Source of the DNA: Gemmatimonadota bacterium
GTDB taxonomy: Bacteria; Gemmatimonadota; Gemmatimonadetes; Longimicrobiales; RSA9
Direction of reading: 5' to 3'
Assembly (NCBI GenBank): GCA_039715185.1
Contig: JBDLIA010000002.1
Span: 3,361 to 67,360 of the forward strand
DNA length: 64,000 nucleotides
Shown here: positions 26,842 to 32,036 of the stretch, one piece after another
Layout of the letters: the number at the start of each line of letters is the position of its first letter
How positions within the stretch are numbered: position 1 is the stretch's first letter
Translations under genes and position numbers: made by a program
Notes under the pieces: generated by a model
What the model saw: the letters and a program-made list of their open reading frames with translations, nothing else
Database searches by the model: none
What the model was told of the DNA's origin: nothing

Positions 26842-28416
26842 TTGAAGCGCGCCGACATGCTGGACCGCCTCGTCGGCCGGGCGGAGCCGTGGGACCTGTT
26901 GGTCGTCGGCGGCGGCGCCACGGGCGTCGGCGTCGCGGTCGACGCTGCGTCGCGGGGCTACGACGTGGCGCTGGTGGAGCAGTCCGACTTCGGTAAGGGC
27001 ACATCGAGCCGCAGCACCAAGCTCATCCACGGCGGCGTCCGCTACCTGCAGCAGGGCAACGTGCCGCTGGTCATGGAGGCCCTCAAGGAACGCGGGATCC
27101 TGCGTCGCAACGCCCCGCACCTCGTATCCGATCTACCGTTCGTCGTGCCCAACTACCTGTGGTGGGAAGCGCCGTTCTACGGTATCGGCATGAAGGTCTA
27201 CGACGCGCTGGCGGGTCGCTACGGGTTCGGCTCGTCGGCCAACCTGTCGCGCGAGGAAACCATCGCGCGCATCCCCACCATCGAGACCGAGGGACTGCGC
27301 GGCGGCGTCATCTACCACGACGGGCAGTTCGACGACGCTCGCCTGCTGATCAACCTGGCCCGCACGGCGGCCGAGCAGGGGGCCGTGCTCCTCAACTACG
27401 CCCGCGTCGTTGCGCTGACCCGCGAAGCGGGCCTGTTCCTGGACGGCGCGCTCGTGCGGGACGAGGAGGCCGGCGAGGAGATCCAGGTGCGGGCCCGCCT
27501 GGTGATCAACGCCACTGGGGCGTTCACCGACGAAGTGCGCCGCATGGATGACGCGAAGGCCGAGCCCATGGTCCGCCCCAGCCAGGGCGTCCACGTGGTG
27601 CTCCCGCGCGAATTCCTGCCGGGTGAGGCGGCCATCATGGTGCCCCACACGGACGATGGACGGGTCCTGTTCGCCATCCCGTGGCACGGGCGCGTGCTGG
27701 TAGGCACCACGGACACGCCGCTCGATGAGGTCTCGCTGGAGCCGCGACCGCTGGCGGAAGAGGTGGACTTCATTCTGGAGCACGCGGTTCGCTACCTGAC
27801 CCGCGATCCGCGTCGAGAGGACGTGCTGTCGGTGTTCGCCGGCATCCGGCCGCTCGTCGCGGCGCAGGACGCGCCCGAGGGGGACACCGCGAAGATCTCG
27901 CGCGAGCACCAGATCCACGTTTCGGCTTCGGGGCTCATGACGGTCGCGGGTGGCAAGTGGACGACCTACCGGAAGATGGCGGAGGACGCGGTCGATCACG
28001 CGGCCGTGATCGCGGAGTTGGAGCCGCGCGAGTGCGTCACCAGGACGCTCAACATTCACGGCCACCACGCCAACGCGGAACGGTTCGGGCCGCTCGCCCT
28101 CTACGGCGCAGACGCACCCGCGCTGCAGGAGCTTCTGGACGAACGGCCGGGATACGCCGAAGCGCTGCACCCCAGGCTACCCGTGCGGACTGGGGAAATC
28201 GCGTGGGGAGCGCGGCACGAGATGGCGCGCACCTTGGACGACGCGCTGGCGCGGCGCACGCGCTCCCTGGTCCTGGACGCGCGCGCGGCGATCGAGGCCG
28301 CGCCCACGGCCGCGCGCGTGCTCGCCGAGGAACTCGAGCGCGGCGACGACTGGGCGAGCGCCCAGGCGGAGGAGTTCCGGGAGTTGGCGCTCGGCTACCT
28401 ACCCGCGGAGTCCTGA
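26842..28416 (+). CDS. glpD: FAD-dependent glycerol-3-phosphate dehydrogenase
   Basis: DLLVVGGGATGVGVAVDAASRGYDVALVEQSDFGKGTSSRSTKLIHGGVRYL is the classic GlpD N-terminus. The length is 524 aa. Confidence 0.9.
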   Translation: MKRADMLDRLVGRAEPWDLLVVGGGATGVGVAVDAASRGYDVALVEQSDFGKGTSSRSTKLIHGGVRYLQQGNVPLVMEALKERGILRRNAPHLVSDLPFVVPNYLWWEAPFYGIGMKVYDALAGRYGFGSSANLSREETIARIPTIETEGLRGGVIYHDGQFDDARLLINLARTAAEQGAVLLNYARVVALTREAGLFLDGALVRDEEAGEEIQVRARLVINATGAFTDEVRRMDDAKAEPMVRPSQGVHVVLPREFLPGEAAIMVPHTDDGRVLFAIPWHGRVLVGTTDTPLDEVSLEPRPLAEEVDFILEHAVRYLTRDPRREDVLSVFAGIRPLVAAQDAPEGDTAKISREHQIHVSASGLMTVAGGKWTTYRKMAEDAVDHAAVIAELEPRECVTRTLNIHGHHANAERFGPLALYGADAPALQELLDERPGYAEALHPRLPVRTGEIAWGARHEMARTLDDALARRTRSLVLDARAAIEAAPTAARVLAEELERGDDWASAQAEEFRELALGYLPAES

Positions 28417-29012
28417 CCGGCCCCCTCGGCCTCCGCCCAGCCCTCCTCGAACGGCCGAAACGCCAGGGGCGGGCGGCCCGTTTCGGTGCACAGGATGGTG
28501 TCCAGATGAGGGTTGTGTTGGGACAGCGCGCGCCTGCGGAAGGGGTTCGGTCGACCATCCCGGTGCCGCTCGAGGTTCAGCGGCGTCCTGGCCCAGGCCG
28601 ACGGGTCGAGACGGACCCGGGGCCGTAGAAACGCGACCAGGTCGTCGGTCGGGACGATCACCCGCGCCCAGCTCAGCCGCACATCGCCCTCGCCTGCGCC
28701 CTTCCGGGGCTCTTTCAGCTCCCTGTACAACGCCTGGAGTCCCCGCGTGCGAGCCCGCACGGATTCCTCACGGAAGGTCTCGTCGAACGCGGCGGCCACC
28801 GATCGCATGGTGTCCAGGTTGCGACCCCACGCCCCCACCTCGCCCTCCATGCGGACGCCCGAGGCGGTCAGGTAACCCTTGAAATAGCGTTCCAGGGCGC
28901 GGTGGGCGGAAAGCGCGGACTCGATCGGGATGCCCGTGAACCAGAGCAGGCGTGCCGCCAGGTAGGCCTCATCCGCGTAGGCCAGCCAGGCCCCCGGAGA
29001 GCGGTCCCTCAA
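28395..29012 (-). CDS. hypothetical protein with a HEPN-like N-terminal helical region, translationally coupled to merR
   Basis: This lies in ORF 28395..29099. I prefer the TTG start at 29012 because it forms a TTGA overlap with the merR stop. AWLAYADEAYLAARLL..ALSAHRALERYFKGYL resembles the first HEPN helices. I see no clear Rx4-6H motif. Confidence 0.45.
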   Translation of the reverse strand: MRDRSPGAWLAYADEAYLAARLLWFTGIPIESALSAHRALERYFKGYLTASGVRMEGEVGAWGRNLDTMRSVAAAFDETFREESVRARTRGLQALYRELKEPRKGAGEGDVRLSWARVIVPTDDLVAFLRPRVRLDPSAWARTPLNLERHRDGRPNPFRRRALSQHNPHLDTILCTETGRPPLAFRPFEEGWAEAEGAGQDSAGR

Positions 29013-29491
29013 GCCGTCTGGCCAACCGCGTTCGAGCGCGGCGGAGGGAAGAGCCGTCCGGCGACCGCTTCCCCAGCGCCAACTGCCGGCCCGAGGCATC
29101 CGCCCTCGGCCAGGTCGTCCAGGTCCACCCTGCAGCCCTCTCCGAAGCAGTCGTCCAGTGCGCCCGCAAGGGCGTCCCGGCGGGACTGCAGTCTAGCGAT
29201 CAGGCCATCCAGCTCGCGCACGTGCTCGCGCGCCACGTCGGCCACGGGATCGCACGCCGAAGGACCGTCGCGCAAAGCCTCGACCACCGTGGTGATCTCG
29301 TCCAGGGAGAAGCCCAGCTTGCGCCAGGAGCGGATCGCGTTCAACTCGCGCAGAGACTGCTGGCCGTAGCGCCGGTAGCCCGAGGCGTCCCTGGGCGGCG
29401 GCCGCAGCAGCCCGCGTCGCTCATAGAAGCGGATCGTTTCGGGCGTGGTCTCGGCGCGGCGCGCGAGCTGCCCGATCAGGTAAGTAGACAT
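29009..29491 (-). CDS. MerR-family (heavy-metal-sensor type) transcriptional regulator
   Basis: MSTYLIGQLARRAETTPETIRFYERRGLL..GYRRY is the MerR helix-turn-helix (HTH) region. Cys80, Cys115 and Cys120 sit at positions like the metal-ligand Cys of MerR/ZntR/CadR-type sensors. Confidence 0.85.
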   Translation of the reverse strand: MSTYLIGQLARRAETTPETIRFYERRGLLRPPPRDASGYRRYGQQSLRELNAIRSWRKLGFSLDEITTVVEALRDGPSACDPVADVAREHVRELDGLIARLQSRRDALAGALDDCFGEGCRVDLDDLAEGGCLGPAVGAGEAVAGRLFPPPRSNAVGQTA

Positions 29492-29498
29492 TCTGCTA

Positions 29499-29565
29499 CG
29501 ACTAAACACTGTAGCGCACTACAAGGCAAGGCCCTTGCTCTGTAGTCGACATCAGGGTCTAGCGT
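29499..29565. promoter_or_regulatory. pair of divergent MerR-type promoters with 19-nt spacers, each containing a TGTAG-N4-C(T/A)(A/T)CA dyad
   Basis: The plus-strand promoter is TTGCTC (29535-40), then 19 nt, then TAGCGT (29560-65). The minus-strand promoter is TTGCCT (reverse complement of 29524-29), then 19 nt, then TAGTCG (reverse complement of 29499-504). The two promoters are near mirror images. Confidence 0.5.
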
Positions 29566-29622
29566 TCGGATCGACCGGCCGACGCGCCGTCGGCTCGGCG
29601 CAACGACAAACGAGGAGAAGCC

Positions 29623-29685
29623 GTGTCTCAGTTCACCAAGCGGGCGGACGATCCCTGCTGCCCGGGATCGCCCTGCGATTGCTGA
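29623..29685 (+). CDS. 20-codon Cys-rich micro-ORF MSQFTKRADDPCCPGSPCDC (candidate metal-binding micropeptide)
   Basis: The GTG start lies 5 nt after GAGGAG (29612-17), downstream of the rightward MerR-type promoter. A 10-bp-stem hairpin follows. The ORF is below the ORF-track size cutoff. Confidence 0.4.
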   Translation: MSQFTKRADDPCCPGSPCDC

Positions 29686-29693
29686 AACGGACC

Positions 29694-29726
29694 CCGCGGC
29701 GTGGCCCCTGGCTGGTCACGCCGCGG
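29694..29726 (+). terminator. hairpin after the micro-ORF, between it and the convergent yfcC-like gene
   Basis: CCGCGGCGTG (29694-703) pairs perfectly with CACGCCGCGG (29717-26). There is no clear U-tract. Confidence 0.4.
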
Positions 29727-29754
29727 CCCGTGCTTCAACCCACCGAGCTCTTCC

Positions 29755-31173
29755 TCAGCCCGTCCAGCCGGTCAGCACCGGCCACACCAGGGCGGCGGCT
29801 CCCAGCAGAAAGAACACGATCTGGAGCGGGAACATCCAGCGCGCCCAGCGCTCCCAGGACACGCCTCCCATGGTGATCGCGCCGATCAGCACCGGGTTGG
29901 TGGGAATGATCATGTTGGTGAAGCCGTCGCCGAGCTGGTAGGCGAGTACCGCGGTCTGGCGGGTGACGCCCACCAGATCGGCCAGGGGCGCCATGATGGG
30001 CATGGTGAGGGCCGCCTGACCGCTGCCCGACGGCACGAAGAAGTTGAGCACCGTCTGAACTCCGTACATCGCCTCGGCGGTCAATACCGGGCCGACGCCG
30101 TCCACCAGCGACGCGGTCGCGTGCAGCAGGGTGTCGATCACCTGACCGTCGTCCAGGACGACCAGGATGCCGCGCGCGACGCCAATGATCACCGCGACCG
30201 ACACCAGGTCGCGCGCGCCCTGCACGAAGCCACCGGAGGTGCCGCCCACCCCGAGCCCGCCGATCAGCCCGACCACGACGCCCACGGCGATGAACAGGCC
30301 GGCGATTTCGTTGATGTACCAGCCGTAGTCGGTGACCCCCACGACCAGCACGACGAGGCCGATGCCGAAGGCCCACAGCACGGCCTTCTCGCGCGCGCCG
30401 AAGGCGCCCAGGGCCTCGTCCAGAGCGCCCGCGGCGTCCTCCGCCATGACCGGCCCGGCCTCCAGCGCCTCCCGCTCGCGGCGCGCCTTCACGCGCCCCG
30501 CATACCACATCACGAACGCGATGGCGACCGTCGTGGTGAGCACCCACAGGCCGAATCGGTAAGCGAACCCGGAGAAAGGGGAGACGTCGGCTATGCCCTG
30601 CGCGACGCCGATGGTGAACGGGTTCATGAAGGCCGCGGCGAAGCCGGCCTGCGACCCCACGAACGGAATGGCTATCCCGGTGATCGCGTCGTACCCCAGG
30701 GAGATCGCCAGCGGCACGAAGATCAGCACGAAGGGAATGGTCTCCTCGGCCATGCCGAAGACCGCCCCGCCCAGCGAGAACAGCGTCATGAAGCCGGGGA
30801 TGATGGCGACGCGCAGCGCGGGAGACGCCTCGGCGGCCGCGGCCAGCCGCTTGAGGCCCGCGTCGATCGCGCCGGTGCGCTGCAGCACCCCGAACGTGCC
30901 GCCCACGATCAGAACGAACCCGATCACGTCGGCGGCCTCGATGAAGCCGCGGATGGGCGCCGTCAGGATCGCCATGAGGCCCTGAGGCGAGCTCTCGGCG
31001 AGGAACGCGAACGAGCCCGGGATGACGACCTCTCGCTCCCCCGCCCCGGGCACGTCGATCACCTCCTTGGCGAACGACCCGGCCGGCACCAGCCAGGTGA
31101 GAATCGCCGCGATTATGACCATCCCGAAGATCAGGACGGTCGTGTCGATCGTGCGCGTGCGGCGTGCGGTCAC
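29755..31173 (-). CDS. YfcC/DcuC-like anion or basic-amino-acid transporter (C4-dicarboxylate anaerobic carrier family)
   Basis: This lies in ORF 29755..31224. The GTG 31173 start forms a GTGA overlap with the upstream stop. The protein is polytopic and Gly/Ala/Val-rich, in a YfcC-like pattern (..FVPSGSGQAALTMPIMAPLADL..). Confidence 0.75.
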   Translation of the reverse strand: MTARRTRTIDTTVLIFGMVIIAAILTWLVPAGSFAKEVIDVPGAGEREVVIPGSFAFLAESSPQGLMAILTAPIRGFIEAADVIGFVLIVGGTFGVLQRTGAIDAGLKRLAAAAEASPALRVAIIPGFMTLFSLGGAVFGMAEETIPFVLIFVPLAISLGYDAITGIAIPFVGSQAGFAAAFMNPFTIGVAQGIADVSPFSGFAYRFGLWVLTTTVAIAFVMWYAGRVKARREREALEAGPVMAEDAAGALDEALGAFGAREKAVLWAFGIGLVVLVVGVTDYGWYINEIAGLFIAVGVVVGLIGGLGVGGTSGGFVQGARDLVSVAVIIGVARGILVVLDDGQVIDTLLHATASLVDGVGPVLTAEAMYGVQTVLNFFVPSGSGQAALTMPIMAPLADLVGVTRQTAVLAYQLGDGFTNMIIPTNPVLIGAITMGGVSWERWARWMFPLQIVFFLLGAAALVWPVLTGWTG

Positions 31174-32036
31174 GCCTCCTCCTCGGCCAGGTGTCGTCGC
31201 AGGAAGTCGATCGTGCGACTCCACGCCAGGCGAGCGGCCTCCTCGTCGTAGCGGGCGGTCGCCGTGTCGTTGTGGAAGGCGTGGTTCACGCCCTCGTACA
31301 TGTGCAGCTCGTAGGTCTTGCCCGCGGCGTCCAGGGCTTCTCGAAACGCCTCGATGCCCGCGTTGATGCGCTGGTCGAGACCCGCGTAGTGGAGCAGCAA
31401 CGAGGCCTGAATCCTGGCCACGTCCTCCGCTGCCGGCTGGCGCCCGTAGAACGCCACCGCCGCGGCAAGCACCCCAGAGTGCACGGCCAGCTGGTTGGCC
31501 ATGGCGCCGCCCCAGCAGAATCCCACGCAGCCCACGCGGCCGCTGGTCTCCTCGTGCTCGGCGGCGAACGTCACGCCCGCCACGAAGTCATCGCGTGTGG
31601 TGGCGGGGTCCAATTCGCGCATGCGCTCGCGCGCTACGTTGGCGTCCTCGGATGTGCCCCCGAGCGGTGATAAGGCGTCGGGCGCGATAGCCCAGAAGCC
31701 GGCGGCCGCGGCCCGCCGGGTGACGTCCTCGATGTGGGGGTTGAGGCCGCGATTCTCATGGATCACGACCACGGCGGGAAGAGGGCCCGGCAGACGGGGA
31801 CGCGCCCGGTAGGCGCGGACCGTCCCGGACGCGCCCTCGTAGGTCACGTAGTCGATCCGGATGCGCCCGTCGTCGCCGGACACGACCGCGCGGTCGTAGT
31901 CGTTCTCGAGGCTGCTCAGCGTGGCCGCGGCGGCGGGCAGACCGCCCACCACGGCTGCCAGGCGCGACAAGAAGCCCGCGCGGGACATGTCCCCGTGGGT
32001 GAACTCGTCGTACAGGTCGATGACGCGCTGGTCCAA
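31170..32036 (-). CDS. dienelactone hydrolase family protein
   Basis: TTG start. The N-terminus DLYDEFTHGDMSRAGFLSRLA is Tat-like, followed by VVVIHENRGLNPHIEDVTRR and the GCVGFCWGG nucleophile elbow. Confidence 0.85.
   Translation of the reverse strand: MDQRVIDLYDEFTHGDMSRAGFLSRLAAVVGGLPAAAATLSSLENDYDRAVVSGDDGRIRIDYVTYEGASGTVRAYRARPRLPGPLPAVVVIHENRGLNPHIEDVTRRAAAAGFWAIAPDALSPLGGTSEDANVARERMRELDPATTRDDFVAGVTFAAEHEETSGRVGCVGFCWGGAMANQLAVHSGVLAAAVAFYGRQPAAEDVARIQASLLLHYAGLDQRINAGIEAFREALDAAGKTYELHMYEGVNHAFHNDTATARYDEEAARLAWSRTIDFLRRHLAEEEA

Follow-up and report, generated by a model that had tools for sequence, protein, structure and literature searches.

The intergenic gap between merR and yfcC was analysed in a 64-kb window, that is, the whole stretch of 64,000 nucleotides (nt) of the Gemmatimonadota contig JBDLIA010000002.1. 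The gap carries a micro open reading frame (micro-ORF) that is divergent from merR, a gene for a MerR-family regulator, and convergent with yfcC, a transporter gene. The analysis of the promoters, the regulator, the orthologous loci and the codon substitutions favoured, with slightly better than even confidence, the reading that the micro-ORF would be a metal-inducible gene driven by MerR and that its product would be a thiolate peptide buffering soft metals. The features of the locus and the peptides of the orthologous loci are collected in Table 1. A preliminary description of this DNA had pointed out a GAGGAG Shine-Dalgarno sequence and a GTG-initiated ORF of 20 codons with four cysteines, and both were present.

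Table 1. Features of the merR/micro-ORF locus with their coordinates in the window, and the encoded peptides
Feature	Position	Strand	Details
micro-ORF	29623-29685	+	GTG start 29623, 20 codons, TGA 29683-29685; encodes MSQFTKRADDPCCPGSPCDC
Shine-Dalgarno sequence	29612-29617	+	GAGGAG, 5 nt 5' of GTG
micro-ORF promoter	29535-29565	+	-35 TTGCTC 29535-29540, 19-nt spacer 29541-29559, -10 TAGCGT 29560-29565
micro-ORF promoter dyad	29540-29555	+	CTGTAGTCGACATCAG (dyad search)
merR promoter	29499-29529	-	-35 TTGCCT 29529-29524, 19-nt spacer 29505-29523, -10 TAGTCG 29504-29499
merR promoter dyad	29509-29524	-	CTGTAGCGCACTACAA (dyad search)
5' stem-loop, micro-ORF mRNA	29575-29597	+	RNAalifold: 9 pairs, 5 with compensatory changes
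3' stem-loop	29694-29726	.	29694-29706 pairs with 29714-29726; between micro-ORF and yfcC stops
merR	29009-29491	-	ATG at 29491; 160-amino-acid MerR-family regulator, heavy-metal subgroup
ORF2	28395-29012	-	205 amino acids; TTG start overlaps merR stop (TTGA)
glpD	26842-28416	+	converges on ORF2, 22-nt overlap with ORF2 end (28395-28416)
yfcC	29755-31224	-	YfcC/DcuC-family transporter; NCBIfam YfcC E=2.8e-116, Pfam DcuC E=5.6e-103
Peptide, window locus			MSQFTKRADDPCCPGSPCDC
Peptide, L001 and L023			(V)TYIAKLADDPCCPGSPCDC
Peptide, L030			MVRFTTFVCDPCCPGSPCDC
Peptide, L004			MTMRSHTDPCCPGCPC
Peptide, L027			MTMRGHTDPCCPGCPC
Peptide, L006			MRVFARTGDPCCPGCPC
Peptide, L028			MLVFARTDGPCCPGCPC
Peptide, L009			MGRRSHSDPCCPGCPCGC
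Peptide, L029			MTSTYIGFDPCCPDGGCC

The two promoters face away from each other and form together an imperfect palindrome of 30+30 nt centred on 29532. Both spacers carry dyads of the CTGTAG-N4-CTACAG type; the spacer of the merR promoter holds TGTAGCGCACTACA, also read as TGTAGTGCGCTACA, and that of the micro-ORF promoter holds TGTAGTCGACATCA. Counted from the sequence, the dyad centres lie 31 bp apart, which is about three helical turns, and these two dyads are the only copies in the window, both at the merR/micro-ORF locus. A palindrome inside a spacer of 19-20 bp is a hallmark of the MerR family (PMC1526738), and both promoters show it, each having a palindromic operator within its 19-nt spacer. 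The half-sites CCCTGTAGT and ACTACAG agreed with the experimentally selected PaCadR motif AACCCTGTAGTTACTACAGGGTT of Pseudomonas aeruginosa, and the 11-0-11 (22-bp) geometry is that of the ZntR consensus ACTCTGGAGTCGACTCCAGAGT; the operator of locus L004, TTGCCCTGTAGTCGACTACAGTGTT, serves as an example. The positions given earlier for the merR start codon, both promoters, their spacers and the dyads were all reproduced. A consensus scan for sigma-70 promoters and terminators returned nothing at the locus, which is uninformative because the scanner was restricted to spacers of 16-18 nt and to hairpins with a T-run.

The micro-ORF promoter was compared across nine loci. The spacer was exactly 19 nt in all nine, and the -35 element followed TTGCYY: the relatives have TTGCCC or TTGCCT where the window has TTGCTC. 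The -10 element was TAGCGT in seven of the nine loci and GAGACT or GAACGT otherwise. In a tabulation of the window with eight other loci, TAGCGT occurred in six and the 19-nt spacer in every one; for L029, added to these, the alignment gave TTGCCC, a 19-nt spacer and TAGCGT. The distance from the -10 element to the start codon was 54-58 nt. On the other side, the merR -10 element ends 7 nt ahead of the ATG in the window, as it does in eight of the nine loci, implying the leaderless merR mRNA that had been proposed for the window. In L029 (150-462) about 46 nt separate the -10 element from the called ATG, so that merR is either not leaderless there or has a mis-called start.

The regulator itself matched the Pfam profiles MerR_1 (E=7.7e-20), MerR (E=1.4e-14) and MerR-DNA-bind (E=9.4e-14). 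The Pfam and PDB matches revealed the N-terminal winged helix-turn-helix and the dimerisation helix of the MerR family, the PDB matches being CueR, CadR and MerR (E=1e-17 to 1e-14); its C-terminal half, searched by itself, matched nothing in the PDB beyond coiled-coil noise from spike proteins of viruses. The cysteines C80, C115 and C120, which the preliminary description had listed, are invariant in nine orthologues, and so is an additional one, C132. In the alignment C80 corresponds to S77 of CueR and C115 to C112 of CueR, and C120 lies in the metal-binding loop. A cysteine at the N-terminal end of the dimerisation helix together with two loop cysteines is common to the divalent-metal MerR sensors, and Ser77 is the residue of the Cu(I)-sensing CueR at the position of C80 (PMC11672702). 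This arrangement of one dimerisation-helix and two loop cysteines, which is the criterion of Permina et al. (PMC1526738), was found in the window MerR. The three-cysteine topology and the CadR/ZntR-like operator support the metal reading.

The search for MerR orthologues covered 5.8 billion proteins and gave nine close clusters at 90 % identity, all of them metagenomic. These are 72-82 % identical to the window protein by BLASTP (68-79 % over the full alignment), and identity falls to 47 % or less in the next relatives. The orthologous neighbourhood is syntenic, with hydrolase, yfcC, gap, merR, ORF2, in some loci ORF3, and the convergent glpD. The micro-ORF stands opposite merR in all orthologous loci spanning the gap except L031, and the complete layout was found again in nine distinct orthologous loci, two of which come from metagenome-assembled genomes of Longimicrobiales. 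In the nine-locus alignment the mean pairwise identity was 85 % for the merR promoter, 88 % for the five central base pairs, 82 % for the micro-ORF promoter and 79 % for the ORF core, as against 42 % for the N-terminal codons of the ORF, 48 % for the leader, 43 % for the segment between Shine-Dalgarno sequence and start, and 42 % for the 3' flank. The conservation islands are thus the promoters and the ORF core only, and the recurrence of the layout in nine loci together with this confinement of identity shows that the unit is not a product of chance. The promoter had been held to have nothing other than the micro-ORF to express, and no homologous locus was found with a larger gene in this place. 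A former, now lost larger gene behind this promoter was considered as a candidate explanation and rejected, since the orthologues carry the micro-ORF only.

The distribution of the module was explored with a degenerate DNA pattern for DPCCPG[S/C/T..]PC in one genome per species. Among its 15 matches, two were true micro-ORFs (DATKCH010000044 and DATHRK010000009), both in metagenome-assembled genomes of Longimicrobiales and both adjoining a merR orthologue. A looser pattern with the first codon relaxed, applied to metagenomes, gave at least four further true loci, all adjoining merR; the matches listed were mostly chance GPCCPG. The module is found in marine and soil Gemmatimonadota (Longimicrobiales), the distribution outside this order being under-sampled. 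The next-nearest MerR proteins (45-47 % identity) lead classical operons with MerR-type operators, namely merR with a P-type ATPase gene, merR with DUF6410, merA and merB, and merR with merC. No cysteine micro-ORF was present in these operons, and on this sequence comparison the merR/micro-ORF module appears to be a clade-specific invention.

The effect of selection on the peptide was analysed with an alignment set that comprised 9 versions at the nucleotide level and 9 at the peptide level, two of the latter differing by one residue; the peptides of the set were found again in further loci. The orthologous peptides have 16-20 amino acids with 4-5 cysteines (20-28 %) and contain CC and CxC motifs around a core of DPCCPG[S/C]PC(xC). 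PCCP is constant, and every version has at least four cysteines and ends with a C-terminal cysteine. Where the third cysteine position is a serine, D-C is added at the C-terminus, which brings the total back to four. The most divergent peptide of the set is that of L029, with DPCCPDGGCC. In the nine-codon core, the varying columns comprised eight of nine at codon position 3 and six of 18 at positions 1 and 2 (Fisher p=0.013). For the five invariant residues the changes fell at third positions alone, 4/5 versus 0/10 (p=0.004). The pairwise codon differences were 112 synonymous versus 47 non-synonymous. The GC content at third codon positions was 0.72-0.95 across orthologues, as is expected of coding sequence when the genome is as rich in GC as this one.

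These results revealed clear purifying selection on the micro-ORF peptide. Proline, glycine and aspartate are kept like the cysteines, and the cysteine count is compensated by the C-terminal extension, which indicates that the selection acts on the peptide. The check that had been set beforehand, namely whether the ORF and not the promoter alone is conserved, came out in favour of the ORF, with substitutions biased to synonymous ones. In run X2, from a related strain in marine sediment, the last 39 nt of the micro-ORF had 0 changes and the next ~65 nt past it had 11 substitutions and three indels (1, 1 and 3 nt). The window sequence was verified in run X1, a marine metagenome, at a depth of 29. 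The start codon is conserved, and all orthologues have a purine-rich Shine-Dalgarno sequence about equally far ahead of it. Neither the 20-amino-acid peptides nor two plausible N-terminally extended forms were present among 15 billion predicted proteins.

The transcript of the micro-ORF is predicted to start near 29572 and carries a 5' stem-loop in which 90 % of cells were paired. Its covariation score was reached by none of 500 shuffles, and slid controls were at most 47 % paired. We infer that this stem-loop stabilises the micro-ORF mRNA. The 3' stem-loop had been described as a hairpin with a perfect 10-bp stem; the 10 perfect pairs are there and are followed by a G.U and two G-C pairs, giving a stem of 13 bp with a 7-nt loop. 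It is a probable terminator and possibly a bidirectional one. The 75-nt 3' tail of the window with this hairpin has a predicted folding energy of -34.9 kcal/mol. Every orthologue has a strong 3' hairpin, with 75-nt tails at -35 to -58 kcal/mol and unrelated hairpin sequences, and a T-run follows it in L029. The gap between stop codon and hairpin is 8 nt in the window and about 8 to 20 nt across the loci. Past the hairpin comes the stop of the convergent yfcC, L029 being the one locus with a differing, unidentified downstream sequence. As no co-oriented gene follows in any locus, the micro-ORF unit is monocistronic.

Three further observations concern the same transcript. A 14-nt inverted repeat (29568-29581/29641-29654, complementary at 86 %) could bring the 5' leader into pairing with micro-ORF codons 7-11. 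In Rfam, the region 28000-31500 matched nothing but noise at E<=10. The TGA codon is followed by a strong hairpin within 8-20 nt in all nine loci, and read-through with selenocysteine at an element like a selenocysteine insertion sequence was considered; this candidate was rejected as unsupported, since the sequence beyond the stop lacks conservation and its indels include lengths other than multiples of 3.

The proposed mechanism is as follows. A MerR homodimer would occupy each of the two adjacent CadR/ZntR-like operators. A soft divalent metal of the Cd, Zn, Hg or Pb class would be held by C80' of one subunit and C115/C120 of the other, and C132 possibly joins this site. The metal-loaded regulator would untwist both spacers and thereby switch on two transcripts. 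The first would be a leaderless merR-ORF2 mRNA and the second a monocistronic mRNA of ~150 nt with the protective 5' stem-loop, the Shine-Dalgarno sequence, the micro-ORF and the terminator hairpin, from which the peptide would be translated. Its C-terminus, CC-PG-C-P-C or CC-PG-S-P-C-x-C, may form a tight turn presenting four thiolates, which would chelate the inducing metal; the site would be mononuclear (S4) or part of a small oligomeric cluster. Such chelation would buffer the metal in the manner of a minimal metallothionein or a ribosomally made analogue of phytochelatin, and it would also lower the signal reaching MerR. The peptides are small and rich in cysteine with CC/CxC motifs, which is the composition expected of a metallothionein.

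Several results weigh against a metal-buffering role under MerR control. For a peptide that buffers metal, four cysteines is at the lower end of the range, and the Pfam and NCBIfam searches at E<=1, metallothionein families included, gave no match to it. The regulator scored under the equivalog cut-off of every named sensor (bits versus cut-off: CueR 88/147, MerR 80/151, ZntR 75-80/143-168, CadR-PbrR 69/151), which leaves it short of orthology to any of them, and its metal loop is unusually short (C-x4-C); with such scores and such a loop, the inducer could be a non-metal. Neither efflux pumps nor other classical resistance functions are encoded in the locus, and no additional copy of the operator was found elsewhere in the 64-kb window. 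The gene co-transcribed with merR encodes a putative HEPN-like protein (ORF2, see below), and we know of no link between HEPN proteins and metals. In L031, a contig of 901 nt, the merR promoter and operator are kept and are followed by divergent sequence, and neither a cysteine-rich ORF nor a second promoter was present in the remaining 250 nt (1-252); this could be due to loss, rearrangement or an assembly chimera. The search of RNA runs with the window found no run containing the locus.

The second output of the promoter pair, which the preliminary description missed, is ORF2. Its start overlaps the merR stop codon (TTGA, ATGA or GTGA) in all loci that reach far enough, resulting in translational coupling, and this overlap points to co-transcription of ORF2 with merR. 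The close family of ORF2 consists of 7 clusters, and a profile search of 1.84 billion representatives extended it to about 34 clusters. The relatives detected in this way (E=1e-35 to 1e-4) match the Pfam HEPN family PF05168 at E=7.6e-09 to 2.4e-04, the matches coming from distant members of ~200 amino acids; the ORF2 of the window has no Pfam match of its own. A canonical Rx4-6H motif is not shared by the family as a whole. An AlphaFold model built from 7 sequences had a predicted local distance difference test score (pLDDT) of 44 and was unusable. ORF2 is tentatively assigned as a diverged HEPN-like protein. PADLOC gave no defence-system match for ORF2, and a tblastn search of plasmids gave no homologue of P0128, a distant relative.

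The distant homologues of ORF2 occur without merR or the micro-ORF; one of them is annotated 'HEPN domain-containing protein [Dasania marina]' and does not stand beside merR. A GFA-family gene follows this stand-alone homologue in Dasania marina (L156 4001-5161). The GFA family consists of glutathione-dependent, Cys-rich zinc enzymes, and the neighbourhood may reflect a thiol link or a coincidence. Many of the distant homologues (P0128-P0140) end in ...F-x-x-D-x-P-G-C with a terminal cysteine. This tail is missing from the Longimicrobiales ORF2, and the micro-ORF (29650-29682) encodes D-P-C-C-P-G-C and a terminal cysteine; the likeness may be a coincidence or a sign of a cysteine tail provided in trans.

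The tails bear on a rather unlikely alternative, in which the peptide, instead of chelating metal in bulk, would serve as a regulatory or adaptor micropeptide that delivers metal to a partner, removes it from the partner or binds the partner directly. The candidate partners are MerR (for feedback or reset), the HEPN-like ORF2, an exporter encoded elsewhere and the YfcC transporter. Each peptide can form only a single metal site, its inheritance strictly follows that of merR-ORF2, and the D-x-PGC tails hint at a cysteine tail supplied in trans, all of which would suit an adaptor. However, the N-terminal half of the peptide, which would be needed for partner specificity, is poorly conserved with its 42 % identity, and the PGC likeness amounts to three residues.

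The neighbouring genes bear on the option, also raised in the preliminary description, that the micro-ORF encodes a precursor of a ribosomally synthesized and post-translationally modified peptide (RiPP) or of a metallophore, with ORF2 or enzymes whose genes lie elsewhere perhaps carrying out the maturation. The peptide has the outline of such a precursor, being short, Cys-rich, variable in its N-terminal part and conserved in its C-terminal part, and it stands next to a co-regulated ORF2 of unassigned function. No recognisable maturase, protease or exporter was found in any locus; the neighbours are merR, ORF2, ORF3, glpD, yfcC and a dienelactone hydrolase gene, and they give no support to this option. 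The HEPN-like ORF2 has no RiPP-enzyme domain and has distant homologues apart from merR and the micro-ORF, and the variable N-terminal part, with its 7-10 residues, would make a very short leader peptide. The precursor explanation is therefore considered improbable.

It is still less probable that MerR senses an oxidant, an electrophile or a thiol-reactive compound and that the peptide is a sacrificial thiol or redox buffer. The atypical C-x4-C loop, the fourth conserved cysteine (C132) and the scores below all metal-sensor equivalog cut-offs are consistent with such a signal. Against it, the three-cysteine topology and the CadR/ZntR-like operator indicate the divalent-metal subgroup, and the best NCBIfam matches are all metal sensors, with SoxR and NmlR far lower. 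The least probable explanation is an action in cis, as a translation sensor of Cys codons or as an RNA (antisense to the yfcC 3' end, or a small RNA) for which the peptide is irrelevant: Cys-codon runs are Cys-responsive attenuators in mycobacteria (bioRxiv 10.1101/834739), the window has its stop codon 8 nt ahead of the hairpin and the transcript runs toward yfcC, but no locus has a co-oriented downstream gene, the stop-to-hairpin distance varies, the Pro, Gly and Asp of the core are as conserved as Cys with the Cys count compensated by the extension, and the mRNA has a leader and a Shine-Dalgarno sequence, unlike the leaderless mycobacterial cases.

The flanking genes complete the picture of the locus. 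ORF3, a glycine-zipper membrane protein of 148 amino acids with a His-rich tail (L001 4144-4590), lies 3' of ORF2 in L001, L004, L006 and L009 and is missing from the window. The yfcC gene is syntenic in the orthologous loci and bounds the unit without being part of it; the gene beyond it encodes a YghX-like dienelactone hydrolase. In three marine runs the depth rose 2-3 fold over ~100 nt of yfcC (29884-29985) with many variant letters, probably because YfcC-family genes from many organisms of the community share a conserved motif there.

Metal binding by the peptide would lower the size limit of gene-encoded metal buffers. Metal buffering by the micro-ORF product would also mean that standard annotation overlooks a whole output class of metal regulons, and it would give a defined metal response for Gemmatimonadota, a poorly studied phylum. 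The merR gene and the intergenic region would then constitute a sensor-plus-chelator cassette of ~750 bp for biosensing or bioremediation. We know of no gene-encoded metallothionein shorter than this peptide. It is tentatively proposed, at somewhat less than even confidence, that the micro-ORF encodes the smallest known gene-encoded metal chelator, a natural tetracysteine hairpin (CC-Pro-Gly-C-x-C) that would be a ribosomal, MerR-induced counterpart of phytochelatin, possibly with a recruited HEPN-like protein.

Among the known systems, phytochelatins and the smallest copper metallothioneins of fungi (for example the 25-amino-acid Neurospora protein) are very short, thiol-rich, metal-induced buffering peptides with 2-7 cysteines. 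Phytochelatins are made enzymatically from glutathione and are non-ribosomal, whereas the micro-ORF peptide is gene-encoded; the fungal metallothioneins are eukaryotic and built of CxC repeats. In smtB-smtA of Synechococcus, the gene of a metal sensor and that of a small Cys-rich metal-sequestering product are divergent and share one operator-promoter region. This divergent transcription of sensor and small Cys-rich product, seen in the smtB-smtA, MymT and PmtA systems, resembles the present layout, and on the favoured reading the present unit would be a minimal form of the pairing of sensor and metallothionein in smtB/smtA. Their sensors are repressors of the ArsR/SmtB or CsoR type, in contrast to the MerR-type activator here, and their products have 53-56 amino acids or more, form polynuclear clusters and have no homology to the peptide.

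Two comparisons concern the peptide alone. The synthetic tetracysteine (FlAsH) tag CCPGCC is a hairpin optimised to bring four thiols to thiophilic arsenic (PMC5638890). It shares the CC-Pro-Gly-C core with the peptide; the tag is man-made, and here the last cysteine is shifted by one residue (CCPGCPC), or the third is a serine with an added xC. Given this likeness, the peptide might be visualised in vivo with biarsenical dyes. The mycobacterial polycysteine upstream ORFs (bioRxiv 10.1101/834739) are likewise unannotated micro-ORFs with consecutive Cys codons. They are leaderless, lie 5' of co-oriented Cys-metabolism operons and act in cis, whereas the present micro-ORF has a leader and a Shine-Dalgarno sequence, is monocistronic with no downstream gene and has conserved non-Cys residues as well.

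The closest likeness in arrangement is with the CadR-zrd system. In P. aeruginosa PAO1, CadR activates zrd, a small, previously unannotated Cys4 gene between convergent genes (Barrows et al. 2025, PMC12301328). Its induction by Cd and Zn was demonstrated experimentally, and metallothionein-like sequestration through mononuclear Cys4 sites was proposed for Zrd (PMC12301328). Both systems combine a MerR-family divalent-metal sensor (predicted as such here) with a CCCTGTAG...CTACAGGG palindrome in an over-long spacer and a stand-alone, small, Cys-rich and formerly unannotated ORF in the gap beside a convergent gene; the CadR-like palindrome 5' of an unannotated monocistronic ORF with four cysteines was found here too. 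The operator centre is 1 bp wider here than in the CadR site. Zrd belongs to the zinc-ribbon proteins, having two CXXC-N10-CXXC motifs and a long N-terminus that is disordered; it is much larger than the peptide and unrelated to it in sequence, and the peptide has no CXXC pairs and is hence unlike it. The zrd gene does not adjoin cadR, and CadR does not regulate its own gene, whereas here the peptide gene and merR are transcribed divergently and the operators stand in both promoters. The preliminary description had called the module undescribed; the literature gave no description of this peptide or module, so that this part holds for the peptide and module themselves, while the CadR-activated Zrd (PMC12301328) precedes the idea. 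The concept has precedents, and what is new is the peptide family, its extreme shortness, the divergent layout with a double operator and the HEPN-like partner.

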